DNA of 26,556 bases from a virus, in the UHGV virus genome UHGV-0062447; one strand, written 5' to 3'. A program made the position numbers and the translations under genes. A model generated the notes under the pieces. The model saw nothing but the letters and a program-made list of their open reading frames with translations. It was not told where the DNA came from and did no database searches. Positions 471 through 25,865 of this stretch are shown here, piece after piece (position 1 is the stretch's first letter; each line of letters starts with the position of its first letter).

Positions 471-967
471 GGGTGACGTCGTGACTGTTCGTGCTCTGAT
501 ATTTTGTCATCCACATACTTGCGGGTTGCCAGCACTACGGCAGGGTCAATTTTCAGGGTGATATTGTCCGTACTGCTGGTAATCAGCACCATGCGCACGG
601 TCTGGGTGCGCCCGCTGCCTTCAGCCAGTTGCGGTTTATAACTTTCCGGGCAGTTCCCCACGGCAATCAATGCCCCTGACTCATCAAACAGGCCCACTTC
701 ACGTATCCACCAACCGCCCTCGTTTTCAGGGATCACCTGTTCAGCAATAATCTGGCTGCTGTTCTGCGGGTCGATATAGAGCATATTCAGCGCAGCCCGG
801 CGTTTCTCATTTACCAGTGCAGTCTGCTTTGCGTCCGGCGTCGGCAATGCTCCGCCGCCATCGCCCACCGCCATATGGGTTATTTTTAGCGGCACACCAA
901 GCGCGGCGGCGCTGGCAAGTTTCGCCGCGCCAATATCCGTCAGCAGGGTATAAAATTTTGTGCTCAT
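1..967 (-). CDS. H: Tail fibre protein H, N-terminal 322 codons (3-prime part outside window)
   Basis: Reverse-strand translation from ATG at 965-967 gives MSTKFYTLLTDIGAAKLASAAALGV..., which resembles the P2 gpH N-terminus as I recall it; it continues into 56-aa repeats (ASLTVKGTVQLSSATNSTSETQAATPKAVKAAYDLAAGKA...) typical of tail fibres. Open to the window edge, so absent from the ORF track. Start overlaps the stop of I (ATGA). Confidence 0.8.
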   Translation of the reverse strand, partial: MSTKFYTLLTDIGAAKLASAAALGVPLKITHMAVGDGGGALPTPDAKQTALVNEKRRAALNMLYIDPQNSSQIIAEQVIPENEGGWWIREVGLFDESGALIAVGNCPESYKPQLAEGSGRTQTVRMVLITSSTDNITLKIDPAVVLATRKYVDDKISEHEQSRRHPDASLTAKGFTQLSSATNSESEILAATPKAVKAAYDLAAGKASASHTHPWNQITGVPAASLTVKGTVQLSSATNSTSETQAATPKAVKAAYDLAAGKAPVSHTHPWSQITDVPAASLTVKGTVQLSSATNSTSETQAATPKAVKAAYDLAAGKAPVS

Positions 968-1569
968 GGATTCACTCTCATTGTGTCAATAACATGGACC
1001 GCCCCGCCTTCATGCGCGGTGCCGCCGGAAATAATTGTTTCGTTGATATACGGATAGATCGTGATTTCTTCGCCAAGATAGCTGGCGGCTCCCACCCAAT
1101 GCGGGCCGCTGGTCTGCAGGTTGATGGACATGCCGCTCATGTGACGGCTACATGGTTTGGCATCGCTTATCAGTCGCTCAAGTTCTAGATAGGTATCTTC
1201 AGTGATGCCCTGGTCCTGCACGCCGATATCCAGACGAAACGTGCCCGGTGCCTCTCCGGTCTGCCACCACTCAATAATGCGGATCAGAAAGCCGAACGGC
1301 TCCACCACCCGCCGCACGGCACTGGTGGTCCCTTTATGCTGATGAATATAAAAAGCATCCTTCACTACCTGGCGTTTGACGCTTTCTGTCCAGCCCTCGT
1401 CCCAGCGATCCACAGAGAACGCCCAGGCGAGATAAGGCAGGAAGCTGACCGGACAGGTAGCCGGATTCCACAAGTCACGCAGCGGCACCTGCAGATCAGA
1501 AATCCCACTGCAGGTTTGCGCCAGTCGTCGCTCCAGTGAAGTTGAACCCGGTGGCAGCAGACTATTCAT
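964..1569 (-). CDS. I: Baseplate assembly protein I
   Basis: ORF 964..1569 (201 aa), ATG at 1567-1569; position between J and H and gpI-like translation; start overlaps J stop. Confidence 0.8.
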   Translation of the reverse strand: MNSLLPPGSTSLERRLAQTCSGISDLQVPLRDLWNPATCPVSFLPYLAWAFSVDRWDEGWTESVKRQVVKDAFYIHQHKGTTSAVRRVVEPFGFLIRIIEWWQTGEAPGTFRLDIGVQDQGITEDTYLELERLISDAKPCSRHMSGMSINLQTSGPHWVGAASYLGEEITIYPYINETIISGGTAHEGGAVHVIDTMRVNP

Positions 1570-2470
1570 CCGTTCCTCCGTTGGTCACGCTCCACTGCGT
1601 ACATGATGCCGCCTGCGTTTTGTTCAGAACCACATCCGCCAGCGGAGAAGCCAGTTCCACACGTTGAACACCCTCAACATGCAGCGCGGCAAAGATGGCA
1701 CTACGGCGAATATCCCGACCGAGCCGCGTCTGACTGGCGATGTACCTCTGCAGGCTGACTTTTGCCGCTGCCATTACCGGCTCTGCTTCCGGTCCCGGAT
1801 AAAGAAAAATGGTGGCTTCCACACGGTACGGGATGATTTCTGCGCTGCGAACCGTCAGACGGTCAGCCACCGGGCGGACGTTCTCACTGTTCAGGGCTTT
1901 CTCCACCACATCCAGCAAATCTTTTTCTGCTGTTCCGTCGCCTTCACGGCTCAGGATAGTCAGTACCACCTCTGCAGGTGCCGGACTGGTTGCACTGGCA
2001 TCCGCCACCCGACCGTCGGCGCTTCGGGCATGAAATTCATAAGCGGCAGTTGGTCCCGCAACTGAAAGCCCCTCAAAGGCTGCAGGCACACGCAGGCGTA
2101 ACGCTTCATCGCTTTCCATCACTGCTGCAACGGGCGGCACAGCGTTATTATCAGCAGGCGTCACCGTCAGGCGTTTCACGTTGTAGTTGGCAGCGATCTG
2201 GTCAAGATCGCCGCCCATCGCGTAAGCCACCATTACCGCCTGCGCGGCTTCGTTAATGCGCTGGCGCAGAAGCAACTCACGGTAAGCGTTCTCCTGCAAC
2301 AATTTGGTGACGGGTTCAGATTCCAGTTCCAGCGTGCGGATCACTGCTTCCTGCTCAGCTTTCGGATGAAGCGCCACAAATTCTGCCTTGCGTTCGGCAA
2401 GCAGCGTCTCAAAGTCCGGCACATCCACAATCTGCGGTGCAGGCAACTGCGAAAGGTCAATCACTGCCAT
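1562..2470 (-). CDS. J: Baseplate protein J
   Basis: Translation from the internal ATG (MAVIDLSQLPAPQIVDVPDFETLLAERKA...) aligns along its length with P2 gpJ as I recall it (302 aa). The ORF track's longer form begins at an upstream start that overlaps W. Confidence 0.85.
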   Translation of the reverse strand: MAVIDLSQLPAPQIVDVPDFETLLAERKAEFVALHPKAEQEAVIRTLELESEPVTKLLQENAYRELLLRQRINEAAQAVMVAYAMGGDLDQIAANYNVKRLTVTPADNNAVPPVAAVMESDEALRLRVPAAFEGLSVAGPTAAYEFHARSADGRVADASATSPAPAEVVLTILSREGDGTAEKDLLDVVEKALNSENVRPVADRLTVRSAEIIPYRVEATIFLYPGPEAEPVMAAAKVSLQRYIASQTRLGRDIRRSAIFAALHVEGVQRVELASPLADVVLNKTQAASCTQWSVTNGGTDE

Positions 2471-3437: not shown

Positions 3438-3455
3438 TGTGTGGTAAATGACACA
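3438..3455. promoter_or_regulatory. TGT-N12-ACA dyad (P2 Ogr / 186 B late-activator-type site) upstream of V
   Basis: Sequence TGTGTGGTAAATGACACA read directly; P2 late promoters carry TGT-N12-ACA upstream of the -35 region. Spacing to the V start (about 55 bp to the ATG) is shorter than expected, so tentative. Confidence 0.3.
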
Positions 3456-3486
3456 AATACAATTCCAATCGAAGAAAGGTAAAAGA

Positions 3487-4017
3487 ATGAGCCATCCAAT
3501 TGATTATTACGCTATAGAAGAACACGCAAGAATAATTGAGCAATTATGCTGTTCATCTGAATTTTATTTACAGCGTATATATTCCACACAGAAAGTATAT
3601 GATGGTTCTATAGTAACTGAATTTGAAATGGAGGAGTTATCGTACAACGGATGGTTGGAATATACCATTAGCAACAATCTTATTAGCCTTTGTACAAAAC
3701 TACGAATTCTCCAAGACACTAATGAACATGAGTGGAACCCAGATTACTCACCTGAGAAAGAAGCATTTGAAGAACATGAAAATATACTTTTTGTTATAGA
3801 TGGTCATGTTAAAGGTTCTATACGCGAATGCTGCAATAAAATTATTCACGCATTAAGTTTTGAGTTAACAAAAAAGACCGGCAAAAATGGAATAAAATAT
3901 TGGGATGGTTCTATTATTGCTTCTGGGGTTCAAAACAAAAAAAACTGGAAAATTAAAATAGACCTTTTCCCTTTTTGCCAAAGCATAAAAAGTTATTTAA
4001 GTTTATTAAGTGCGTAA
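3487..4017 (+). CDS. Hypothetical protein (176 aa), low-GC cargo gene between V and S on the opposite strand
   Basis: ORF 3448..4017; preferred start ATG 3487 preceded by AAAGG (gaaaggtaaaagaATG); alternative ATG at 3448. Coding sequence is very AT-rich relative to flanking core genes. No motif recognised. Confidence 0.65.
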   Translation: MSHPIDYYAIEEHARIIEQLCCSSEFYLQRIYSTQKVYDGSIVTEFEMEELSYNGWLEYTISNNLISLCTKLRILQDTNEHEWNPDYSPEKEAFEEHENILFVIDGHVKGSIRECCNKIIHALSFELTKKTGKNGIKYWDGSIIASGVQNKKNWKIKIDLFPFCQSIKSYLSLLSA

Positions 4018-9978: not shown

Positions 9979-11745
9979 ATGAACACCACACTGACACCCA
10001 CAGATCTCGATCCCCGTCGGCAGGCCATGCTGCTGTACTTTCAGGGATACCGCGTAGCCCGCATTGCTGAAATGCTGGGCGAGAAAGTTGCAACCGTTCA
10101 CAGCTGGAAGAAACGCGACAAGTGGGGTGACTATGGGCCGCTGGATCAGATGCAGCTCACCACCGCCGCCCGCTACTGCCAGCTCATTATGAAGGAGCAC
10201 AAAGAAGGGAAAGATTTCAAAGAGATTGACCTGCTGGCGCGCCAGTCGGAACGCCACGCGCGGATCGGCAAGTTTAACAATGGCGGCAACGAAGCCGACT
10301 TAAACCCTAACGTCGCCAACCGCAACAAAGGCCCGCGCCGTCAGCCGGAAAAGAATGTTTTCACCGATGAGCAGATTGAGAAGCTGGAAGAAATCTTCCA
10401 TTCCTCCATGTTCAACTACCAGCGCCACTGGTGGGAAGCCGGAAAAACCAACCGCATCCGCAACCTGCTGAAATCACGCCAGATCGGCGCGACCTTTTAC
10501 TTTGCCCGTGAAGCCCTGATTGACGCTCTGCTTACCGGACGTAACCAGATTTTCCTTTCCGCCAGTAAGGCACAGGCCCACGTCTTTAAGCAGTACATCA
10601 TCGACTTCGCCAAAGAAGTCGAGGTGGAGCTGAAAGGCGATCCGATGGTGCTTCCTAACGGGGCCACGCTTTACTTCCTCGGCACCAATGCCCGCACGGC
10701 CCAGAGTTACCACGGCAACCTGTATCTGGATGAATATTTCTGGATACCGAAATTCCAGGAGCTGCGCAAAGTGGCTTCCGGTATGGCTATTCACAAAAAA
10801 TGGCGACAAACCTATTTTTCCACGCCATCCAGCCTGACACACAGTGCTTATCCGTTCTGGTCCGGTGCGCTGTTCAACCGGGGGCGCAACAAAGCCGATA
10901 AGGTGGACATCGACCTGTCCCACAGCAATCTGGCCCCCGGCCTGCTGTGCGCAGACGGGCAGTACCGCCAGATAGTCACCGTGGAAGATGCGGTGCGCGG
11001 CGGCTGTAACCTGTTCGACCTTGACCAGTTGCGCATGGAGTACAGCCCGGACGAATACCAGAACCTGCTGATGTGCGAGTTTGTGGACGATCTCGCGTCC
11101 GTGTTTCCGCTCAGCGAGCTGCAGGCGTGCATGGTGGACAGCTGGGAAGTCTGGACCGACTTTCATGCACTGGCGCTGCGCCCGTTTGGCTGGCGCGAGG
11201 TGTGGATCGGTTATGACCCGGCAAAAGGTACGCAGAACGGCGACAGCGCCGGGTGCGTGGTGGTGGCACCGCCAGCCGTGCCGGGCGGTAAGTTCCGCAT
11301 TCTTGAGCGTCACCAGTGGCGCGGGATGGACTTCCGCGCTCAGGCTGACGCCATCAAAAAACTGACCGAACAGTACAACGTGACATATATCGGCATCGAC
11401 TCGACAGGTGTCGGTCACGGAGTTTATGAGAACGTGAAAGCGTTCTTTCCTGCCGTCCGGGAGTTTGTCTACAACCCCAACGTTAAAAACGCCCTGGTAC
11501 TCAAGGCCTACGACATTATCAGCCACCGCCGTCTGGAGTTTGACGCCGGACACACCGACATTGCGCAGTCATTCATGGCAATCCGTCGCGCAACCACCGC
11601 CAGCGGCAACCGCCCGACCTATGAAGCCAGCCGCAGCGAAGAAGCCAGCCACGCCGATCTGGCCTGGGCAACAATGCACGCACTGTTTAACGAACCGCTG
11701 CAGGGCGAATCCGCCAATACCAGCAATATTGTGGAGATTTTTTGA
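9979..11745 (+). CDS. P: Terminase ATPase (large) subunit P
   Basis: 588-aa ORF, ATG 9979; P2 gpP-like translation; stop overlaps Q start (ATGA). Confidence 0.9.
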   Translation: MNTTLTPTDLDPRRQAMLLYFQGYRVARIAEMLGEKVATVHSWKKRDKWGDYGPLDQMQLTTAARYCQLIMKEHKEGKDFKEIDLLARQSERHARIGKFNNGGNEADLNPNVANRNKGPRRQPEKNVFTDEQIEKLEEIFHSSMFNYQRHWWEAGKTNRIRNLLKSRQIGATFYFAREALIDALLTGRNQIFLSASKAQAHVFKQYIIDFAKEVEVELKGDPMVLPNGATLYFLGTNARTAQSYHGNLYLDEYFWIPKFQELRKVASGMAIHKKWRQTYFSTPSSLTHSAYPFWSGALFNRGRNKADKVDIDLSHSNLAPGLLCADGQYRQIVTVEDAVRGGCNLFDLDQLRMEYSPDEYQNLLMCEFVDDLASVFPLSELQACMVDSWEVWTDFHALALRPFGWREVWIGYDPAKGTQNGDSAGCVVVAPPAVPGGKFRILERHQWRGMDFRAQADAIKKLTEQYNVTYIGIDSTGVGHGVYENVKAFFPAVREFVYNPNVKNALVLKAYDIISHRRLEFDAGHTDIAQSFMAIRRATTASGNRPTYEASRSEEASHADLAWATMHALFNEPLQGESANTSNIVEIF

Positions 11746-12773
11746 TGGGAAAGAGTAAGAAGAACCGCGCTGCGGCGACGAAACAGCTCCAGCTTAAAAA
11801 CCAGACTACAGCCGAAGCATTCAGCTTCGGCGATCCCGTTCCTGTTCTGGACCGCCGAGAACTGCTGGACTATGTGGAATGCGTACAGATGGATCGCTGG
11901 TATGAGCCGCCCGTCAGCCTTGACGGACTGGCACGAACCTTCCGCGCCGCCGTGCATCACAGCTCACCAATTGCGGTGAAATGCAACATTCTGACCAGTA
12001 CCTACATCCCTCACCCGCTGCTCAGCCAGCAGGCTTTTTCACGTTTTGTGCAGGACTATCTGGTATTTGGTAACGCCTACCTGGAGAAACGCACGAACCG
12101 CTTCGGTGAAGTTATCGCCCTTGAGCCTGCTCTGGCAAAATACACCCGACGCGGGTTAGACCTGGATACCTACTGGTTTGTACAATACGGCATGACTACG
12201 CAGCCGTATCAGTTCACGAAAGGCAACATTTTTCATCTGATGGAACCGGACATCAACCAGGAGATCTACGGCCTGCCCGGTTATCTTTCTGCAATTCCGT
12301 CAGCTCTGCTCAACGAGTCCGCCACGCTGTTCCGCCGCAAGTATTACATTAACGGCAGTCATGCAGGCTTCATCATGTACATGACCGATGCAGCGCAGAA
12401 CCAGGAGGATGTGAACAACCTCCGCAATGCGATGAAAAGCGCCAAAGGTCCTGGTAACTTCCGTAACCTGTTTATGTACTCGCCTAACGGTAAAAAGGAC
12501 GGGCTTCAGATTATTCCTCTGTCAGAAGTCGCGGCAAAGGATGAATTTTTGAATATCAAGAACGTGAGCCGGGATGACATGATGGCAGCACACCGAGTGC
12601 CGCCGCAAATGATGGGGATAATGCCGAATAATGTTGGGGGATTTGGGGATGTGGAGAAGGCTAGTAAGGTTTTTATGCGTAATGAATTGATACCGCTACA
12701 AAACAGAATAGAAGAACTCAATAAATGGCTCAAAGATGACATAATAAAATTCATGCCATACAGTTTCATATAA
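11745..12773 (+). CDS. Q: Portal (capsid vertex) protein Q
   Basis: 342 aa from ATG 11745; P2 gpQ-like; the last ~110 bp of coding sequence are markedly AT-rich. Confidence 0.85.
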   Translation: MGKSKKNRAAATKQLQLKNQTTAEAFSFGDPVPVLDRRELLDYVECVQMDRWYEPPVSLDGLARTFRAAVHHSSPIAVKCNILTSTYIPHPLLSQQAFSRFVQDYLVFGNAYLEKRTNRFGEVIALEPALAKYTRRGLDLDTYWFVQYGMTTQPYQFTKGNIFHLMEPDINQEIYGLPGYLSAIPSALLNESATLFRRKYYINGSHAGFIMYMTDAAQNQEDVNNLRNAMKSAKGPGNFRNLFMYSPNGKKDGLQIIPLSEVAAKDEFLNIKNVSRDDMMAAHRVPPQMMGIMPNNVGGFGDVEKASKVFMRNELIPLQNRIEELNKWLKDDIIKFMPYSFI

Positions 12774-12778
12774 AACTA

Positions 12779-12799
12779 AGGGCCGAATACCTCGGCCCT
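12779..12799 (-). terminator. Rho-independent terminator hairpin (8-bp stem AGGGCCGA/TCGGCCCT) with U-tract on the minus-strand transcript
   Basis: Stem-loop read directly, immediately 3-prime of the 557-aa minus-strand gene; the T-run on the minus strand overlaps the last codons of Q. Confidence 0.6.
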
Positions 12800-12804
12800 C
12801 TACA

Positions 12805-14478
12805 TTAAGATTTATGGCTAAAGAGTATACCTGTAACAGAACGTTGATAGGCATCAAGCTTCTCTTGCCTCTGCTTAAATTTAGATTTGATATCACTAAT
12901 ACTCGGAATACCTATTACTCCAAGGCCTGCACTTAACGTCGCTAAAGTAGTATTGCCAGTCAGCGCTCCAGCAATTGCTATAGCACCATTTGCGATACAT
13001 GGTAGGACATCTAGTCCGTAAATTCTCAATTTCTCTTTTTGGGCTTTTGCAAGAATCCTTTGATGTTCAATAAAAGCCCGGTCTACATTATCAATTACTT
13101 TTTGCGTTGTCCTCGAAAAGCTCTCTGCCGAAGAATTGATTAAAGAGTCAACACCATTTGATAAGATGGATCTTACATCCTCCATCAATTTGTTACGTCT
13201 CAACTCAATTATTTTATTGACCGGTACATTTCCTAACCATGAAAAACCATCTTGCATACCAGCAGATAACGCATGAACCATATGCAAATTTTTTAGTTCA
13301 ATATCATTGACATCAAAATTAAGAGATTCGTACTCAATAAGCCAAGTATAATAGAGCCAAGATGTGTCTGCATTTATATATGGAGTACTACCAAGTTCTT
13401 GTGCATTACATTTTGCTGAATAGGCTTGCGGCATTCTTCCAATGCAGGAAAGGAAAACCTCCATTCCAGCATGATCACCAACAACATTACGTGATATTCT
13501 TTTTTTATCAGATAGTAGTTTTTCTAATTGAGTTTTTGGATTTAGCCCCCATGCTGTATCAAAAATAAGTCTATCTGCTCTCTTAATATTTTTAAGAACA
13601 GCATCAATATCATTCATCGAATAACTAAAATCTTGAAATTCATCGTAGCTTTCGAACCGTCGATCATAGAGATATTGCGCATGAGTCAGAGCATAAGGCT
13701 CACAAAAACTCATCAAATTTTTTTTGCTCTCAGTTTCAAAATCTCTTCTATCCGGCAAAATTAATACTATTGCTGGCTCTATATCTTCAAGCGCTACTTC
13801 TTTATATGTCATACATGTTAGGACATGCTTTAGAAGTATCCTTGTAAACTCAGCCTTATCTGACTTTTCATAGAGACGACCGACTCTTAATATAGGACAT
13901 GGAAGTGAAATAGTATCAACATACAACCCTGCAATAGAGACAGCATTCTCATCAAATGCAGGAAATAAGTCACCAGAAAAATTAGCTTTAAACTGAGAAC
14001 CATCCTGCAAATGTATTACACCAATATCGGATGTTACCTGCCAAAACTCTATTACCTGATTATATAACTCAGGAAAAACATCTTCTATTTGCTTAACATA
14101 TTCTTCTTGTTGAGAAAAAAAACTTGATGCTTTATGTGGCGTTGCATTAGTTTTTTTCATCAGATAAAACAACTCGCCAAAATTACTAAAAAGAATATTA
14201 AAGTAAGAACTTTGCAAGTCCTGAATAGAGTATTTGTTTTTTATATCTTCTCTTTCTAAAAAGTGATTAACCGCTGCTCCCATAGCCTTTATTCTGCCAT
14301 CAACAGTAGAAGGGTCAACTTTACCATCCTGTCGCAGCCTTATTCTTTTAAAACTTTCAATAAAACCTTCTACAAGATGATGAGCTATTTTTAGTTTTCC
14401 CGCTTCCAGTTGTTGCTTAATGAGAAAAACACGCTCAGTTAAATCGTCTACATATTCCTCATCTTGATATTTTTCCAT
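12805..14478 (-). CDS. Hypothetical 557-aa protein with C-terminal hydrophobic/glycine-rich hairpin; low-GC cargo gene between Q and cos
   Basis: Single long ORF, ATG 14476-14478 with GGAG 6 nt upstream; very AT-rich; C-terminal segment ...LPCIANGAIAIAGALTGNTTLATLSAGLGVIGIPSI... is hydrophobic; no Walker motif or other domain recognised by eye. Confidence 0.8.
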   Translation of the reverse strand: MEKYQDEEYVDDLTERVFLIKQQLEAGKLKIAHHLVEGFIESFKRIRLRQDGKVDPSTVDGRIKAMGAAVNHFLEREDIKNKYSIQDLQSSYFNILFSNFGELFYLMKKTNATPHKASSFFSQQEEYVKQIEDVFPELYNQVIEFWQVTSDIGVIHLQDGSQFKANFSGDLFPAFDENAVSIAGLYVDTISLPCPILRVGRLYEKSDKAEFTRILLKHVLTCMTYKEVALEDIEPAIVLILPDRRDFETESKKNLMSFCEPYALTHAQYLYDRRFESYDEFQDFSYSMNDIDAVLKNIKRADRLIFDTAWGLNPKTQLEKLLSDKKRISRNVVGDHAGMEVFLSCIGRMPQAYSAKCNAQELGSTPYINADTSWLYYTWLIEYESLNFDVNDIELKNLHMVHALSAGMQDGFSWLGNVPVNKIIELRRNKLMEDVRSILSNGVDSLINSSAESFSRTTQKVIDNVDRAFIEHQRILAKAQKEKLRIYGLDVLPCIANGAIAIAGALTGNTTLATLSAGLGVIGIPSISDIKSKFKQRQEKLDAYQRSVTGILFSHKS

Positions 14479-14579
14479 AAACGCTCCATTAAAATATTTA
14501 ATAATGCATATAAGAATAGTTAATAATATTTACAGTAACTATATCACATTAGATCCAGATTGTTACACTGTTGCGCGCG

Positions 14580-14598
14580 CTCGTATCCCCGCCACGCC
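14580..14598 (-). other. Putative cos site (cohesive-end sequence)
   Basis: Minus-strand sequence GGCGTGGCGGGGATACGAG; the first 13 nt match the P2/186 cohesive-end sequence as I recall it (GGCG[A/T]GGCGGGGAAAGCA[C/T]), followed by a CGCGCGC tract as in the P2 left end. Location between Q and A is as expected. Confidence 0.5.
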
Positions 14599-14640
14599 TG
14601 CCCGCTTTATGTAGCGGTTTTCATGCGCCTGCATGACATA

Positions 14641-14667
14641 AGCAAAAGCCCGCCACTCCTGGCGGGC
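14641..14667 (-). terminator. Rho-independent terminator (GCCCGCC-ACTCCT-GGCGGGC stem-loop, T-run on minus strand)
   Basis: Read directly; lies about 95 bp 3-prime of the 203-aa minus-strand gene. Confidence 0.65.
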
Positions 14668-14758
14668 CTCAGCTAAAACGATCCTCAAACGATCATGCGG
14701 ATTCATGCGGCATAGACATGCACAATCTCCAAAGCGGGCATCGAGACTTTTTGGAAAC

Positions 14759-15370
14759 CTACGTAACCACAGTTAATGTGTGCATCCTGTCTCGAATTGC
14801 ATCACACGTCTCATCAAAAAGCTTGGTGATGGTTGTACAGTTCAACTCCGCCTCTTTCCAATAATTTTGCCCGTCAAATTCTGGATCGCTATGCTTAAAC
14901 GATATTGACTCTGAAAGGCATTCCTTCCGGAAACGGTCCAAGATTATATAAACCTCTGGTGAGATGAACGGTTTGTTAGATTCAACACTTGTAACAAAAG
15001 TGTTAAATGCATCAAAAAAAACTTTCAACCTTCTAAATTTTCTCTCTTCAAATGGTTCGTTGGGGTCAACATGATCCAGCGCAGGCCTCAGCTTAAGCAC
15101 GCTTTCTCTGGTTTCAAACATCGAATTCCAAATGAGACTATATGCTGATAACTCCTTATCAAAATACGCTTTCGTTACATAAACAGAATTGTCTAACTTA
15201 GCCTTTATTCTTTCATTAGTTGCACTCAGTTGTGATTGAAATTCAGCAATATCTTTGTTTAGCCGCGACTTATATCTTTCTAAATAAACTTTCCCGATCC
15301 AAACAAATATGCCAGATGCAACAAAAGACACCCCACCCAACGAAGCCAGAACTTTAAAGACTAAATCCAT
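14759..15370 (-). CDS. Hypothetical 203-aa membrane-anchored protein (N-terminal TM helix); low-GC cargo gene between cos and the SOS operon
   Basis: ATG 15368-15370 preceded by AGGTGGGGG; N-terminus MDLVFKVLASLGGVSFVASGIFVWIG is a predicted TM helix; AT-rich; nothing recognised in the remainder. Confidence 0.8.
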   Translation of the reverse strand: MDLVFKVLASLGGVSFVASGIFVWIGKVYLERYKSRLNKDIAEFQSQLSATNERIKAKLDNSVYVTKAYFDKELSAYSLIWNSMFETRESVLKLRPALDHVDPNEPFEERKFRRLKVFFDAFNTFVTSVESNKPFISPEVYIILDRFRKECLSESISFKHSDPEFDGQNYWKEAELNCTTITKLFDETCDAIRDRMHTLTVVT

Positions 15371-15752: not shown

Positions 15753-15986
15753 TTAGTGCAGCCAGCTGTCGTCTTCCCAAACCTGTTGCATAATTTCCAT
15801 CACCCGCTTTTTGTCTTCATCAAGCTTTAAGCCACTCAGCTCAACGCCGTTTGCCGCCCCTTTACGGATGCGGATAGCGGTCTTGGGATAGATGGGTTGC
15901 AGGTTGCGGTAAAGCTCGGACTCCAGAGCGTCCAGGGTAGACTGGCTAATCTTCTGCTCTTTATCGATCATTATTTCAATGCGCAT
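15753..15986 (-). CDS. DinI-family protein (77 aa), 186 Tum C-terminal-like
   Basis: From ATG 15984-15986: MRIEIMIDKEQKISQSTLDALESELYRNLQ...GAANGVELSG...EDKKRVMEIMQQVWEDDSWL parallels E. coli DinI (MRIEVTIAK...DALAGELSRRIQ...AAANNLSVIG...EDKQRISEILQETWE) as I recall it; SD GAGGTGA upstream. Confidence 0.8.
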   Translation of the reverse strand: MRIEIMIDKEQKISQSTLDALESELYRNLQPIYPKTAIRIRKGAANGVELSGLKLDEDKKRVMEIMQQVWEDDSWLH

Positions 15987-15996
15987 AAAAGTCACC

Positions 15997-16185
15997 TCAA
16001 CTGATGACATCCATTGAGCGGTTGTATTCGTGGGTTCTGATTTTTGCCATGAGTTCATCTGTTAGTTCAGAAACCCACTGCAAAGCCAGCCCCTTCTCTT
16101 CATCACTACACTCACTAGCCGCTACAAGCTTAAGAAAAAAATCAATGCGCTGGAGCTTCAAAGACTCCAAAAAATAGTCCTGCAT
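15997..16185 (-). CDS. Small protein (62 aa), first cistron of the LexA-controlled operon
   Basis: ATG 16183-16185 preceded by GGAGGAAAAATG; ends 10 nt before the dinI-like ATG. Confidence 0.6.
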   Translation of the reverse strand: MQDYFLESLKLQRIDFFLKLVAASECSDEEKGLALQWVSELTDELMAKIRTHEYNRSMDVIS

Positions 16186-16338: not shown

Positions 16339-18753
16339 TTAATACATGTTCCGCCATTTATCATCCTCCTGCAGACGCTGGTTCCGATAGAAGATACGCA
16401 GGCCTGCTCCTGACGGAATACTGCCACCGCGAAGGAGCAACTCGACCTCTTTCTCGCTGCCATCAAATCCTCTGGACTTCAGTTCATAGACAAGCTGCTG
16501 TCGCTGATGGTCTGTAATTCGCTGTTTGTAGTCTTTACGCCGTTTCGGTTTCACCAGGCGTAACCTTGCTGCCAGTTCCCGGCGATCTTTTTTGCTCATA
16601 CTGTGCAGGTAATCGTGCAACTCCTTGTCATTCATACGGGTAATATCCGTTCTGGAGTCCCCATCAGCTGATTTGTTTTTCCCTTGTTGGTTCAAATTTT
16701 CAGCAAGGGGACAGTTATTGCCACGAGTCCAAGGGGCGCAAGCGCCCTGGTCGGCTGCCGCCTCCTGAACGTCAACGGCCTTACGAACCATTTTCCACTT
16801 CACCGCATGAGTGCAGATCTTGCCCTCTGCAATGGGTGACCAGATGCCATAAATACGAATACCGTGATCGCCATAGGCGGTTGGCTCTTCGTTGATTTCA
16901 TAAGCGGTTCTGATGAGGTGATATTTACGGGGAACCAGTACGCCGCCCTGCTTCATGATATAGGTGGCAAAACAACCAGCATCAGCAGCAGCCAGAATGG
17001 CATCAAGGCGCGGGTTATCCAGTACCGGCGCACCTGCTTTTTTGTCACCCTGTTGCCTTGCCGCCTGACCAGCCAGCAATCGCAGTTCACGGTAAGCCTG
17101 ACGCCCCGGAATGCCAAAGAAGCGGAATTGCTGAACACGATGCAGAGACGCCCAGGCATTAACGTATTCAGCGTTATCACGCAGGGATTTACCCGTTTCC
17201 TTGCTGATCTCCCCAGCCAGACCACGCCCGTCAATGTTCTTACTGATGTATTTCGCGATATAGCTTGTTGGCGTACCTTTGCGCGGGTTTATCAGCTCAG
17301 ACTTAAAGCGTGGTCCCGTGTTATTGCCCAGCTCCTCGCGGTCTTCACGGATGGCAAACTTACGCAGTAATGCAGTGATGGCGCGGCGGTCTTTTTTACG
17401 CATGAAACACATGAGATGCCAGTGCACAGTACCGTCATGATGCGGCTCAGCTACCCGCACGCCATACCAGCGCAACTCGGCTTTATGCATAGCCTTACGA
17501 AATGCAGCAAACATGCCGACCAGATAATCGCTACTTTGTCTTACCGTCGCGTTTGTCCAGGTCGGGTTTGGTCTGCCGTTATTGAGCGTGGAATGGAAAC
17601 GCGACGGACAGGTGATAGTGTAGAAAACGGCACAGTCACTGCGCATTTCCGCGATAAGCTCCAGACCTTTAACACAGGCCATCATCTCATTGCGGCGATG
17701 CGCCGGGTTGCTGCTGCTGGCGTTTACCACATCTTCCATATCCAGCGTGTCGCCGTCTTCGTTCACCAGTTCATGAGAACGAAAAAACTCCAGCGACTTA
17801 CGGCGCTGCTCACGTTTATGCATCACGGCTTCATAGCTGACATAGGGGGATGCTTTTTTGCTGACCAGGCAGACAGCACGCAACTGCTCTTCCCGCCATT
17901 CGCAACGCATCTTCCATAATTTCCGATACCACCAGTCGGCACACAACATACGCGCCAGCGAACCCGGGATGAGTTCATAGGGCACTGGTTTGCGGCGGTT
18001 TCTTTTCCGACGAAGTTTCTCAAACGCAGGCGGGATAACATCCAGACGCAGGGTTTCCGCTGCCACCTTTTCCCATGTCTTGCGGATTTCTTCTGGCTTA
18101 ACGTCATCGGTGGCATACAAGTCACCACAAGCGTCCTCAAGACACATGCTCATATGCGCTGCTACCAGGGTGGACAGGCGTTTCACCTGATCCTGGCTCA
18201 TTTCAGGCAGGATCAGCAGACCCTCCAGCCCTTGATGGCTTGCCATAAAACGGAAAGAAACAGATAGCTGACTGTCACGTACACAATCCAGTCGCTCCAG
18301 ACATGGCTTAATCGTCTCACGCAAATAGCGGGAATAAGCCTTTGGCCTGCCCAGGCTGCTGAAGTATTCAATACGTTGCATCAGCGGCTTGCTGATATGG
18401 GAAGGCTGGGCGTTTACGTCCGCCAGAATGACCATGTCCGGATTAAAACGCTGCTGCTCATGCGCCAGCTTTGCCCGGCTAATGAGCTTATCCTGCTCCA
18501 TTTCGCGCTGGACAGGATCACGGGATTCATTAAAGAAATAACGCTCCCAGACCTGCTCACTCAGTGCCTCGCGGCGCAGTTGTTCCTGCTCGTTATCGGC
18601 AGCGTACAGAGTGATCAGGTTTGAAAGTGCAGACTCCGGCGCAACTTCCGCCGGGTCCAGATAAGGGTTAATGGCCTTTTTCGAGCCGTTCCATGAAAAT
18701 GCTGCGGCGGCCTCGTTAAAGCCGCTGCAATTGTTCATATCGTCATGACTCAT
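16339..18753 (-). CDS. A: Replication initiation protein A (rolling-circle endonuclease), P2/186 gpA-like
   Basis: 804 aa from ATG 18751-18753 (overlaps dam stop as ATGA); large protein in the expected position, with translation recognised as P2/186 gene A family. Confidence 0.85.
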
Positions 18754-19607
18754 ACACACACTCCGTACACGGCAGAACTATCCACGCCACGCGAAGGATC
18801 AAATCCCAACCAGCAGCTCGGCCCGGAAACAGCAATGATTTCTGTTGCAGATTTACCCTCGCCAGCTGACACGCCGATGCTGCGTTTTGCCTTGATATAG
18901 TGGTGAGTAAAATTGCGATACAGCGAACGAATCAGGGATGTGTCATTGTTAGAAACAATGACCGGATGTCCTTCTGATGACCGATGTTCAAGAATGGATG
19001 CCAGGTGATACTGGTCATCTTCAGTGAAACCATCAGTGTGATAGCCGGAAAACGTACCGTCATACGGCGGATCGCAATACACCACATCCCCCACCTGCAG
19101 CATCGCCAGCGTTTCATCAAAGCTCGCGCAGATAAACGTTGCCCGCTGGGCTTTCTCTGCAAATGCGCGAATTTCTTTTTCAGGGAAATACGGATTTTTA
19201 TAATTACCGTAGGGAATGTTGAAATACCCGCTCTTGTTATAGCGACATAAACCACGGTAACCGTGACGATTGAGATACAGGAAATATATCGCCTTCATGA
19301 AATCAGTAATTTCAGTTGAGTAATTAAACTCCTGTCTTATGTTGTAATAAGCCAGCTCACTGTTTGCTTCCTCAAATAAAACTTTGGCACGAGATATAAA
19401 CGCTTCGCAATCAGCGGCAATCTTTTTATAGAGGTTGATTAAATCAGGATTAATATCCGCAACCAGATAGCTGGGGTAATCCGTCGCCATCATCACAGCA
19501 CAAGAACCCGCGAAAGGTTCAACCAGTCGCGGGCCAGCAGGAAGGTATTTTTTCAGTTCGGACATAATGGCGGTTTTATTACCCGCCCATTTCAGGATGG
19601 TGCTCAT
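18750..19607 (-). CDS. dam: DNA adenine methyltransferase (Dam-like, N6-adenine MTase)
   Basis: From ATG 19605-19607: [23 protein letters not shown]...FAGSCAV... and a DPPY catalytic motif ([14 protein letters not shown]). Confidence 0.85.
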
Positions 19608-19831
19608 ACAGCACCTCCGTTGTAATGTTTGCCTTTCAGCTCTGCGATTTCCTGGCAGGTAATGCAAAGCTGCACTCCAGGAATGGCACGGCGGCGTGCT
19701 GGCGGAATTGGCGCTTCACACTCAACGCAAAGCACGCGGGACACGCCCGGCGTTTTGGCGCGGGCAGCACGGATATGACGCTGGCGTTCTTCTTCAACGC
19801 GCTGCTGTACGAGATCCATTGCATCAGCCAT
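19604..19831 (-). CDS. TraR/DksA-family C4 zinc-finger protein
   Basis: 75 aa with CVEC...CITC motif; ATG overlaps the upstream stop; stop overlaps dam start. Confidence 0.75.
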   Translation of the reverse strand: MADAMDLVQQRVEEERQRHIRAARAKTPGVSRVLCVECEAPIPPARRRAIPGVQLCITCQEIAELKGKHYNGGAV

Positions 19832-22475: not shown

Positions 22476-22564
22476 AAGGCAACATTCCTTCTAGATATGG
22501 CTTGTGGCGAGCCGTTGTTTGTCGTGATTAGTAGTGAAGGCTCCAAAAGAAGACTTCTGGTTCA

Positions 22565-22593
22565 ACTTTAAGATCGCTTTTGGAATCTGTCAA
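22565..22593 (-). promoter_or_regulatory. Lytic promoter (pR-like): -35 TTGACA, 17-bp spacer, -10 TAAAGT on the minus strand
   Basis: Read on the minus strand: TTGACAgattccaaaagcgatctTAAAGT. Directed toward apl and located inside the cI leader, the face-to-face arrangement described for 186 pR/pL. Confidence 0.55.
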
Positions 22594-22620
22594 CGAATTT
22601 TGGATTTCTTTGGAGGATTT

Positions 22621-23190
22621 GTGGATTTCAATAGCGGCGGTAAGAAAGCCATAGAACGTTTGGTTGAAGCATACGGGTTCGGTACCCGTCAGGCTCTCTG
22701 TGATCATTTAGGTGTTTCTAAGAGCACCATGGCAACGCGTTATATGCGTGATATTTTTCCGGCAGATTGGGTAATCCAGTGCGCCCTTGAAACGGGTACC
22801 TCGCTTAATTGGCTAACAACAGGGCATGGTTCAAAGCAAGCATCAGCAAATACAAATACTATAGAAGTAGTAAAATATTTATTGTCTGATGGAGCATTGC
22901 AGGAAGACGGTTTTTATATTTTTGATAAGGGATTTCTACCCTCTACGTTTAAAAAACCTTTTGTCATCACAGATAACAATTCTGAATTTATTTGTGATAA
23001 AGAATTTGATGATATACGTGATGGTAAATGGGTAATAAGTATTGATGGCGAAATAACAATCCGCGACATCACTCGTTTACCCGGTGGAAGAATTTTCGTT
23101 GAAGGTGGAAACAGAGCCTTCGAGTGCAAGATAGAAGATGTTGAAATAATTGGAAAAATTATAAGCTTAACAGTTAAGTATGTTAGATAA
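22621..23190 (+). CDS. cI: CI immunity repressor (186 CI family)
   Basis: Preferred GTG start at 22621 preceded by GGAGG (ORF-track start 22534 is also GTG). N-terminal HTH region (...AIERLVEAYGFGTRQALCDHLGVSKSTMATRYMR...ALETGTSLNWLTTGHG) and C-terminal pattern (WVISIDGEITIRDITRLPGG...GGNRAFECKIEDVEIIG) parallel 186 CI; C-terminal half is AT-rich. Confidence 0.8.
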   Translation: MDFNSGGKKAIERLVEAYGFGTRQALCDHLGVSKSTMATRYMRDIFPADWVIQCALETGTSLNWLTTGHGSKQASANTNTIEVVKYLLSDGALQEDGFYIFDKGFLPSTFKKPFVITDNNSEFICDKEFDDIRDGKWVISIDGEITIRDITRLPGGRIFVEGGNRAFECKIEDVEIIGKIISLTVKYVR

Positions 23191-24733: not shown

Positions 24734-24759
24734 TATGTATGGCTATACAAATTCATACA

Positions 24760-24788
24760 TTGACACTGGTTATATATACAGTAAAAAT
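24760..24788 (+). promoter_or_regulatory. Putative sigma70 promoter upstream of int (-35 TTGACA) overlapped by a LexA-box-like dyad CTGGTTATATATACAG
   Basis: Read directly: TTGACA-CTGGTTATATATACAG-TAAAAAT; the dyad differs from CTGT-N8-ACAG at one position. Confidence 0.35.
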
Positions 24789-24812
24789 GCTCTCCACTGG
24801 AGGGCATTTTTT

Positions 24813-25865
24813 ATGGCTGTACGAAAACTCACCACAGGAAAATGGCTTTGCGAATGTTACCCCGCCGGACGTAGTGGGCGTCGTGTGCGTAAACAATTCG
24901 CCACCAAAGGCGAAGCACTGGCTTTTGAGCGTCACACGATGGAAGAAACCGAAGCAAAGCCCTGGCTGGGTGAATCAGTGGATCGTCGAACACTGAAAGA
25001 CGTGGTTGAGCTATGGTTCAAACTACATGGTAAATCTCTGACTGCTGGGCAGCATGTCTATGACAAATTGCTGCTGATGGTTGACGCTCTGGGCAATCCC
25101 CTTGCAACTGATCTAACCTCTAAAATGTTTGCCCACTATCGAGATAAACGCCTGACAGGTGAGATCTACTTCAGCGAGAAATGGAAGAAAGGAGCAAGCC
25201 CGGTCACCATTAACCTGGAGCAAAGCTATCTAAGTAGTGTTTTTAGCGAACTATCCCGCCTGGGCGAATGGTCGTATCCGAACCCACTGGAGAACATGCG
25301 AAAATTCACCATCGCAGAAAAAGAGATGGCATGGCTTACCCATGAGCAGATTGTTGAATTACTGGCTGATTGCAAACGTCAGGAGCCAATTCTGGCACTG
25401 GTAGTTAAGATATGCTTAAGCACAGGCGCACGCTGGCGAGAAGCCGTAAATCTTACCCGCTCACAGGTGACCAAATACCGAATTACCTTTGTAAGAACGA
25501 AGGGGAAGAAAAACAGAAGCATCCCTATCAGTAAAGAGCTTTACGAAGAGATCATGGCGCTTGATGGATTCAATTTCTTCACAGACTGCTATTTTCAATT
25601 TTTATCCGTGATGGAAAAAACGTCTATCGTGCTCCCTCGCGGTCAACTCACACACGTTCTGCGCCATACGTTTGCGGCGCACTTCATGATGTCGGGTGGA
25701 AACATTCTGGCCTTACAAAAAATTCTCGGACACCACGATATAAAAATGACTATGCGTTACGCACATCTGGCACCGGATCATCTGGAAACGGCGCTCCGTT
25801 TCAATCCTCTGGCAACGCTGCCAAGTGGCGACAAAGTGGCGGCAGCGGTTGGCATTACCCCGTAA
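24813..25865 (+). CDS. int: Tyrosine integrase (P2/186 Int family)
   Basis: From ATG 24813: MAVRKLTTGKWLCECYPAGRSGRRVRKQFATKGEALAFE... parallels the P2 Int N-terminus (MAIKKLDDGRYEVDIRPTGRNGKRIRRKFDKKSEAVAFE) and contains the catalytic-region motifs STGARW, HVLRHTFA and MRYAH. Confidence 0.9.
   Translation: MAVRKLTTGKWLCECYPAGRSGRRVRKQFATKGEALAFERHTMEETEAKPWLGESVDRRTLKDVVELWFKLHGKSLTAGQHVYDKLLLMVDALGNPLATDLTSKMFAHYRDKRLTGEIYFSEKWKKGASPVTINLEQSYLSSVFSELSRLGEWSYPNPLENMRKFTIAEKEMAWLTHEQIVELLADCKRQEPILALVVKICLSTGARWREAVNLTRSQVTKYRITFVRTKGKKNRSIPISKELYEEIMALDGFNFFTDCYFQFLSVMEKTSIVLPRGQLTHVLRHTFAAHFMMSGGNILALQKILGHHDIKMTMRYAHLAPDHLETALRFNPLATLPSGDKVAAAVGITP

Follow-up and report, generated by a model that had tools for sequence, protein, structure and literature searches.

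The virus genome UHGV-0062447, analyzed here as a single stretch of 26,556 nucleotides (hereafter the window), is a P2/186-like prophage that carries, between the portal gene Q and the cohesive-end site cos, a gene for a protein of 557 amino acids (aa). The comparisons described below identify this protein as a distant homolog of DitB, a component of the antiphage system Aditi; the protein is encoded without the Aditi partner DitA and contains a predicted membrane hairpin of its own. Its family is best classified as a branch of the DitB superfamily, solo and hairpin-bearing, that resides in known cos-proximal hotspots of P2-like and P4-like elements. A role of some kind in defense or exclusion appears probable. 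The specific model that we favor, with a probability of about 40%, is a stand-alone abortive infection (Abi) protein in which the DitB-like body would sense the infection and a helical stalk ending in the hairpin would damage the membrane.

Relationship between the 557-aa protein and DitB

Aditi is a two-gene system, DitA and DitB, that has been experimentally verified in Saccharibacillus kuerlensis (Millman et al., 2022). DitB is the only significant PADLOC match of the 557-aa protein, and this match is partial (E-value 5.9e-10, residues 195-452). The DitB sequences were taken from the supplement of the 2022 study, 35 DitB homologs were collected and 26 DitB sequences were aligned. Comparison of a wide profile of the 557-aa family with this 26-sequence profile using hhalign yields a probability of 96.4% and an E-value of 1e-9 over 335 columns; the alignment covers residues 83-473 of the window protein and residues 8-359 of the 372 in DitB, that is, nearly the whole of DitB, with an identity of about 14-15%. 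Several invariant residues coincide in the two proteins (557-aa protein/DitB), namely Q89/Y92 with Q14/Y17, F145/W146 with F43/W44, P195 with P95, P242 with P142, Q351 with Q242, and P366 with P257, and the motifs IQxxY, FW, (D/P)(D/C)P, ILP, xxQA and (T/I)PxI are common to both. The match between the DitB of B. simplex and a narrow family alignment (A1) is weak (probability 7.7%), and the homology becomes convincing only once the profiles are widened on both sides. As judged from these profile alignments, the distant homology to DitB is real, contrary to the notion that the protein resembles nothing known. The two proteins also share an association with defense contexts.

The two proteins differ substantially in architecture. 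DitB is a soluble protein of about 360-372 aa that comes from Firmicutes and is always accompanied by DitA, whereas the 557-aa protein is solitary and longer, with approximately 80 additional residues at the N-terminus and approximately 85 at the C-terminus, the latter containing the hydrophobic hairpin. The most hydrophobic 19-residue segment of DitB (mean hydropathy 1.49) is the GYLAQA core helix, not a C-terminal hairpin, and the window protein accordingly departs from the DitB layout of about 360-370 aa without a membrane segment. The 483-aa DitA protein matches Pfam family DUF5677 (locus L041, 1557-3008) and contains no hydrophobic segment. PADLOC identifies no DitA among the open reading frames (ORFs) adjoining the 557-aa gene, a tblastn search with DitA yields nothing significant in the window and 40 related loci, and hhalign detects no relationship between DitA and the 557-aa family (probability 0.3%). 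Because no DitA is adjacent, the gene lacks the defining two-gene feature of Aditi, and on the available alignments the protein is a relative of DitB rather than an Aditi system. One distant family member is followed, at a distance of about 4 kb, by a gene for a weakly matching DUF5677 protein (L004, 11869-12699); a helix-turn-helix (HTH) and reverse transcriptase cassette lies between the two, and the DUF5677 protein is probably unrelated.

The family motif LPDP (DDP in DitB) contains a near-invariant Asp, which is present in 41 of the 51 diverse members; in the subfamily that includes the window gene, Cys takes the place of this Asp (LPCP) in all 32 members (C194, encoded at 13897-13899).

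The gene, its family and its genomic contexts

The 557-aa gene is real and looks foreign. Its GC content is 0.352 and drops to 0.246 at third codon positions (GC3), compared with a GC3 of 0.57-0.71 in the terminase gene P, the portal gene Q and the replication gene A, and the 400-nucleotide GC profile falls to 0.33-0.39 over the gene. This low GC content is the sole support for the possibility that the ORF is a chance frame or a decaying pseudogene in AT-rich filler, an explanation that is practically out of the question. At the ORF's own base composition, the probability of 557 stop-free codons is about 2.5e-20; full-length homologs with 20-78% identity are present in several phyla; the AlphaFold models are confident; and all 19 copies found in complete Escherichia coli genomes are at least 99% identical over the full length. 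Sequence conservation already refutes this explanation.

The window protein is identical to the database entry 'MULTISPECIES: hypothetical protein [Enterobacteriaceae]' and shows 99% identity to WP_024235280.1, which carries the same hypothetical annotation. A word-indexed search retrieved 174 clusters at 90% identity, of about 556-560 aa and every one named 'hypothetical', from Enterobacterales, Aeromonas, Aquitalea, Burkholderiales and Ca. Electronema. When 1.84 billion representatives were searched exhaustively with a profile, the family grew to 762 clusters at 50% identity (E-value at most 1e-3), 264 of them at E-values of at most 1e-30, and a genome scan added Alphaproteobacteria and one metagenome-assembled genome of Gastranaerophilales. 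The family therefore spans Proteobacteria and beyond, with members labeled hypothetical throughout the databases, and the protein is not the orphan it had been taken for; moreover, WP_024235280 was already entered as 'hypothetical' in Table S5A of a published catalog of hotspot arrangements, outside the set described there as tested (Rousset et al., 2022; PMC9122126). This protein was not found in the main texts searched or in the DefensePredictor supplements. Of 5426 complete E. coli genomes, 17 contain the gene, and among 50,697 phage records searched with tblastn the protein was detected in a single one; given this sporadic occurrence in E. coli together with its GC3 of 0.25, the gene is accessory. 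E. coli 13P477T possesses three copies (records NZ_CP019273.1, NZ_CP019275.1 and NZ_CP019279.1), one on the chromosome and two on records of 37 kb and 22 kb that are filed as plasmids; these two may represent P2-like genomes in an excised or episomal state, or else artifacts of assembly, and the protein is matched in two tblastn pieces in the 37-kb record, suggesting a frameshift.

Some distant relatives (P0159, P0217, P0224, P0231, P0236 and others) contain N-terminal extensions of 200-300 aa in which no Pfam domain was detected. In addition, 9 of the 51 diverse members match the 86-position PADLOC profile of Avs1c; in P0217, the only member checked, this match lies within the N-terminal helical region that is missing in DitB.

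The gene occupies a distinct slot between Q and cos (Table 1). In P2 and 186, the annotated cohesive ends place the end of cos only 186-195 bp from the portal stop codon, including the terminator tQ/tW, whereas the same interval in the window accommodates a cassette of about 1.8 kb, as had been predicted. The stop codon of the 557-aa ORF is 31 nucleotides from that of Q, and its ATG is 101 nucleotides from the cos 19-mer (GGCGTGGCGGGGATACGAG), the first 13 nucleotides of which are exactly those of the 186 cos. This 19-mer is the boundary of the cassette, outside the gene proper, and is part of about 155 bp of sequence conserved in Fels-2, SopEPhi and many P2-like phages of Klebsiella and Yersinia. 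The start codon and the promoter-like site of the gene are at most 101 nucleotides from the cos cleavage site, and the gene with its promoter is therefore the outermost left-end unit of the packaged linear genome. With respect to the expression signals that had been proposed for the gene, a GGAG ribosome-binding site and a terminator-like hairpin are indeed present, but the promoter amounts to no more than a match to the consensus, given that around the gene sites of this kind show no enrichment (5 observed against 9 expected from shuffled sequences).

In the prophages compared, the identical 557-aa protein is always encoded 31 nucleotides from Q, and its partners on the other side of cos comprise at least six different gene sets or are missing altogether, which indicates that the gene is an independent module. 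The same slot is occupied differently in Fels-2 (NC_010463.1), where STM2723.1 (737-2434, minus strand), annotated as hypothetical, encodes a full-length homolog of AbiU (565 aa; PADLOC E-value 2.7e-112). The two genes share the slot, the orientation, a similar size and the single-gene organization, but there is no detectable homology between the proteins (hhalign probability 0.08%), nor does the 557-aa protein match AbiU in PADLOC. Thus, the Q-cos slot swaps single-gene, Abi-type cargo.

The gpA-gpQ interval of P2-like phages has been defined as a defense hotspot, the cargo of which is able to act against close relatives of P2 (Rousset et al., 2022; PMC9122126). As originally claimed, the 557-aa gene belongs to this documented hotspot: it adjoins cos, and the occupancy of its position varies among related prophages. 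Like the other hotspot cargo, such as Old, Tin, DUF4238 and DprA-PRTase, it lies in this interval and is variable, of low GC content and self-contained. Unlike old and tin of P2, which are located on the A side of cos, it is on the Q side, and its product shows no sequence relationship to Old or to any other PADLOC model apart from DitB.

Other candidate identities were rejected. The P2 Old protein combines an ABC-ATPase with a TOPRIM domain, and no Old, AAA or TOPRIM match of the 557-aa protein was found in PADLOC, Pfam or NCBIfam, although the same Old model does detect a neighbor of one distant homolog. The lack of resemblance to Old and Tin that had been noted at the outset holds, the only PADLOC matches being DitB and a weak one to LeoBC, as does the absence of a Walker motif (no Walker-type family is matched). 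The LeoBC match, which would have pointed to the dynamin-like Eleos system, is local and weak (C-terminal 110 residues, E-value 0.0044) and is not accompanied by any Pfam GTPase family. A phage structural or packaging protein was likewise sought, with a best PHROGs E-value of 0.04 over 34 residues, which is not significant, and negative results in Pfam and PDB; no significant family was found for the protein in Pfam, NCBIfam or PHROGs.

The distant homologs are always solitary, without a common partner gene: in 19 genomes, the 128 neighboring ORFs contain any given Pfam family three times at most, integrase being the most common. The islands in which they reside hold Gabija, Thoeris, retrons, Old, restriction-modification (RM), Dpd and PARIS, and the PADLOC matches among the neighbors include Thoeris, type IIG RM, DpdE/F, Old, three retron-type reverse transcriptases, ZorD, AriA and MADS. 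In particular, the Aquitalea homolog is located inside a Tn7-like element together with Gabija, a UvrD helicase and an HNH protein; another homolog adjoins a cassette of HTH and reverse transcriptase genes as well as a PAAR protein gene; a third is associated with a P4-like integrase and Ogr/Delta and has a cos-like site 168 bp upstream; and two homologs from Enterobacteriaceae are found beside genes similar to P4 alpha and psu. The proposed candidacy for defense or exclusion is strengthened by the homology to DitB, by the solitary homologs located next to defense systems or in P2, P4 and Tn7-like hotspots, and by the presence of AbiU in the Fels-2 slot.

Conversely, the gene might be a non-defense 'moron' involved in host membrane or stress physiology, virulence, lysogen fitness or an anti-defense activity that helps the phage. 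This is unlikely. It would agree with the hypothetical status of the protein in all databases and with the fact that the sole annotated relative, DitB, has no known biochemistry, as well as with the mixed hotspot cargo and the silence of the literature that are considered below; it is at odds with the DitB homology, with the repeated co-location with many unrelated defense systems in unrelated mobile elements and taxa, with the known Abi gene in the same slot of Fels-2, and with the lack of secretion signals and of matches to virulence families in Pfam and NCBIfam.

Protein anatomy and possible modes of action

The full-length AlphaFold model of the 557-aa protein is confident, with a mean predicted local distance difference test score (pLDDT) of 83.1 and a predicted template modeling score (pTM) of 0.74, and consists of a helical part (residues 7-157), an alpha/beta core (158-452) and a 54-residue helix (454-507) that leads into a hydrophobic turn-helix. 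Conservation is highest in the core, at or adjoining the predicted strands. The family-invariant residues include (S/G)G169-D170, Y186-x-D188-T189, P193-C194-P195 (P193-x-P195 across the family), P242, R348, P366..T372-S373-W374, R427 and R436, a pattern that we infer to be typical of ligand-binding sites in Rossmann-like domains. Foldseek with this model retrieved no solved structure for the whole protein and nothing with an E-value below 1; the core yields weak but consistent structural matches to Rossmann-like folds of the HUP class. Nucleotide-binding folds of this class are found in class I aminoacyl-tRNA synthetases, cyclodipeptide synthases, pantothenate synthetase, ATP sulfurylase and PP-loop enzymes. 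Because the signatures of the class (HIGH, KMSKS and SGGxDS) are not present in the core, the HUP fold is a lead rather than an assignment. In appearance, the core is closer to an alpha/beta domain that binds a ligand or has enzymatic activity.

The C-terminal hydrophobic hairpin noticed in the original prediction is borne out. It comprises two adjacent hydrophobic helices with 19-residue Kyte-Doolittle means of 1.62 (residues 488-506) and 1.46 (residues 512-530), and it is conserved family-wide: it is retained in 214 full-length relatives, with median 15-residue means of 1.88 and 1.48 for the two arms, and G498 and G523 are invariant. The length of the arms is compatible with a thin transmembrane hairpin and with monotopic insertion alike. 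The likeness to hairpin effectors, namely the two-transmembrane effectors of signaling defense systems and the stalk-tip paddle of the bacterial dynamin-like LeoBC (Eleos), is that of a generic helical hairpin, with no homology shown, and in contrast to these effectors the 557-aa protein has neither a GTPase domain nor a signaling partner.

This anatomy is compatible with the originally proposed cytosolic sensor joined to a membrane-perturbing effector, although the hairpin could be a mere anchor. Under the Abi model that we favor, the gene would be a stand-alone antiphage module, carried as accessory cargo of the cos-proximal hotspot, and the protein would be made in the lysogen from its own promoter. 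The DitB-like body would detect an infection cue, with the alpha/beta core probably binding a small ligand or nucleotide, and the signal would be relayed through the C-terminal helical stalk. The Gly/Ala-rich hairpin would position the protein in or on the inner membrane; upon activation, hairpins might insert or oligomerize and compromise the membrane such that the infection is aborted or blocked. The in-cis hairpin would thereby stand in for the contribution of DitA in the two-gene Aditi system. Homology, context and predicted structure are the basis from which a defense phenotype, the sensing of infection and the role of the hairpin as effector are deduced. An extension of this model to the whole family of 762 clusters, as a single-protein 'solo DitB' immune system with the E. 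coli protein as the founding example, in which the nucleotide-binding-like core senses and the hairpin executes Abi, is tentative and on balance doubtful.

Several observations weigh against the Abi model. The neighborhood evidence comes from about 25 loci and is not a statistical defense score. The predicted hairpin arms, of approximately 15-17 residues, are moderately hydrophobic and suit a monotopic anchor as well as a pore. The absence of DitA may render the analogy with Aditi functionally unsound, and since Aditi has no established mechanism (literature searches turned up no mechanistic study of either Aditi or DitB), the homology to DitB transfers a role but not a mechanism. Furthermore, the hotspot cargo includes non-defense genes, such as partition systems and toxins, among them the cytolethal distending toxin (PMC9122126), and the literature searched reports no experimental phenotype for any family member, its sole mention being the 'hypothetical' listing of Rousset et al. 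(2022).

The main alternative is that the gene is a defense gene in which the hairpin only anchors the protein and the conserved alpha/beta core is the effector, an enzyme or nucleotide-binding domain that would act at the inner membrane on a nucleotide, a cofactor, a tRNA or incoming phage DNA; we consider it somewhat unlikely.

Superinfection exclusion from the inner membrane of the lysogen, whereby the entry of DNA or other early steps of incoming phages, possibly including P2-like relatives, would be blocked without cell killing, appears quite improbable. The gene is carried by a prophage and preceded by a promoter-like site of its own, and membrane association is predicted for its product, all of which is compatible with exclusion, as is the activity of hotspot cargo on close P2 relatives (Rousset et al., 2022; PMC9122126). 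Against this, homologs are also found outside prophages, for example in chromosomal islands of Betaproteobacteria and in an island of the Tn7-like type, so that general defense fits better than phage-specific exclusion. Exclusion proteins of the Sie/Imm type are small, and a conserved cytosolic body of about 490 aa would be unusual among them.

Other cargo of the prophage and implications

Table 1. Features of the 557-aa gene and other genes and sites of the prophage (positions in the window).
Feature	Position	Strand	Basis or remarks
557-aa coding sequence	12805..14478	-	ATG start; intact ORF
Residues 1-82, N-terminal helical extension	14233..14478	-	AlphaFold helices 7-25, 33-45, 61-82; DitB alignment begins at 83
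Residues 83-473, DitB-homologous body	13060..14232	-	hhalign and PADLOC
Residues 158-452, alpha/beta core	13123..14007	-	four short strands
Residues 454-557, C-terminal part	12808..13119	-	helix 454-507, return helix 510-521, amphipathic basic helix 527-545, short tail
Residues 488-526, Gly/Ala-rich hydrophobic helical hairpin, polar TGN turn	12901..13017	-	predicted membrane-inserting element
GGAG ribosome-binding site	14484..14487	-	5 nucleotides 5' of ATG; read from sequence
Sigma-70-like promoter candidate	14538..14566	-	GTAACA, 17-nucleotide spacer, TATAGT and extended TG; consensus match
Intrinsic-terminator-like hairpin and T-run	12778..12800	-	right after the 557-aa stop codon, within the 31-nucleotide gap to Q
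cos cohesive-end 19-mer	14580..14598	-	reverse complement GGCGTGGCGGGGATACGAG; aligns with P2 cosL and 186 cos
Conserved block containing cos	about 14563-14723
Terminase P	9979-11745	+
Portal Q	11742-12773	+
203-aa ORF	14759-15370	-	between cos and DinI
DinI	15753-16058	-
Replication gene A	16339-18759	-
D12-class adenine methyltransferase	18750-19667	-	directly upstream of gene A
CI repressor	22534-23190
KAP-family P-loop NTPase, 443 aa	23402-24733	+	between CI and integrase
Integrase	24735-25865
189-aa ORF	3448-4017	+	late-gene region

Several other genes of the prophage show features of accessory cargo. A low-GC island (0.30-0.37) between the CI repressor and integrase genes contains a 443-aa KAP-family P-loop NTPase, which is a full-length match to the PADLOC candidate PDC-S20 (E-value 2.6e-171) and, by this sequence match, a candidate for a second defense cargo of this prophage. 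On the A side of cos, the 203-aa ORF (GC 0.39) has a hydrophobic N-terminal stretch and matches phrog_26391 over its full length (E-value 1e-141), with no match in Pfam or PADLOC; in other prophages with the identical 557-aa gene, its slot is empty or contains at least five other gene sets. The 189-aa ORF, located in a sharp GC dip (0.325) of the late-gene region on the strand opposite to its neighbors, also has no Pfam or PADLOC match and may be another moron. Finally, the D12-class (Dam-like) orphan adenine methyltransferase (Pfam E-value 3e-75; PADLOC orphan methyltransferase E-value 9.9e-110) may provide the phage with self-protection against restriction.

Defensive cargo in this hotspot is, as such, unsurprising to specialists. 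The 557-aa gene is a worthwhile target owing to the size of its family, the lack of a resembling solved structure, the link to Aditi and the ease of testing. Aditi is among the few validated defense systems without a recognizable domain or mechanism, and the gene connects the fold of DitB with a large family in Proteobacteria that does without DitA and has a membrane element of its own. It also offers a simple entry point native to E. coli, a single gene with its own candidate promoter in a 1.8-kb cassette, with clear mutational targets in D188/T189, R348, R427/R436, C194 and the hairpin. Should the gene prove not to be protective, it would caution that hotspot position and remote homology are insufficient evidence. 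If it is protective, it would represent a new single-gene system that is currently not called by annotation of the DefenseFinder and PADLOC type, and would explain a recurrent 'hypothetical' of the P2 and P4 hotspot catalogs. The single-protein 'solo DitB' reading, if true, would show a one-gene solution next to the two-gene solution of Aditi to the same problem, and provide the first mechanistic handle on that system.

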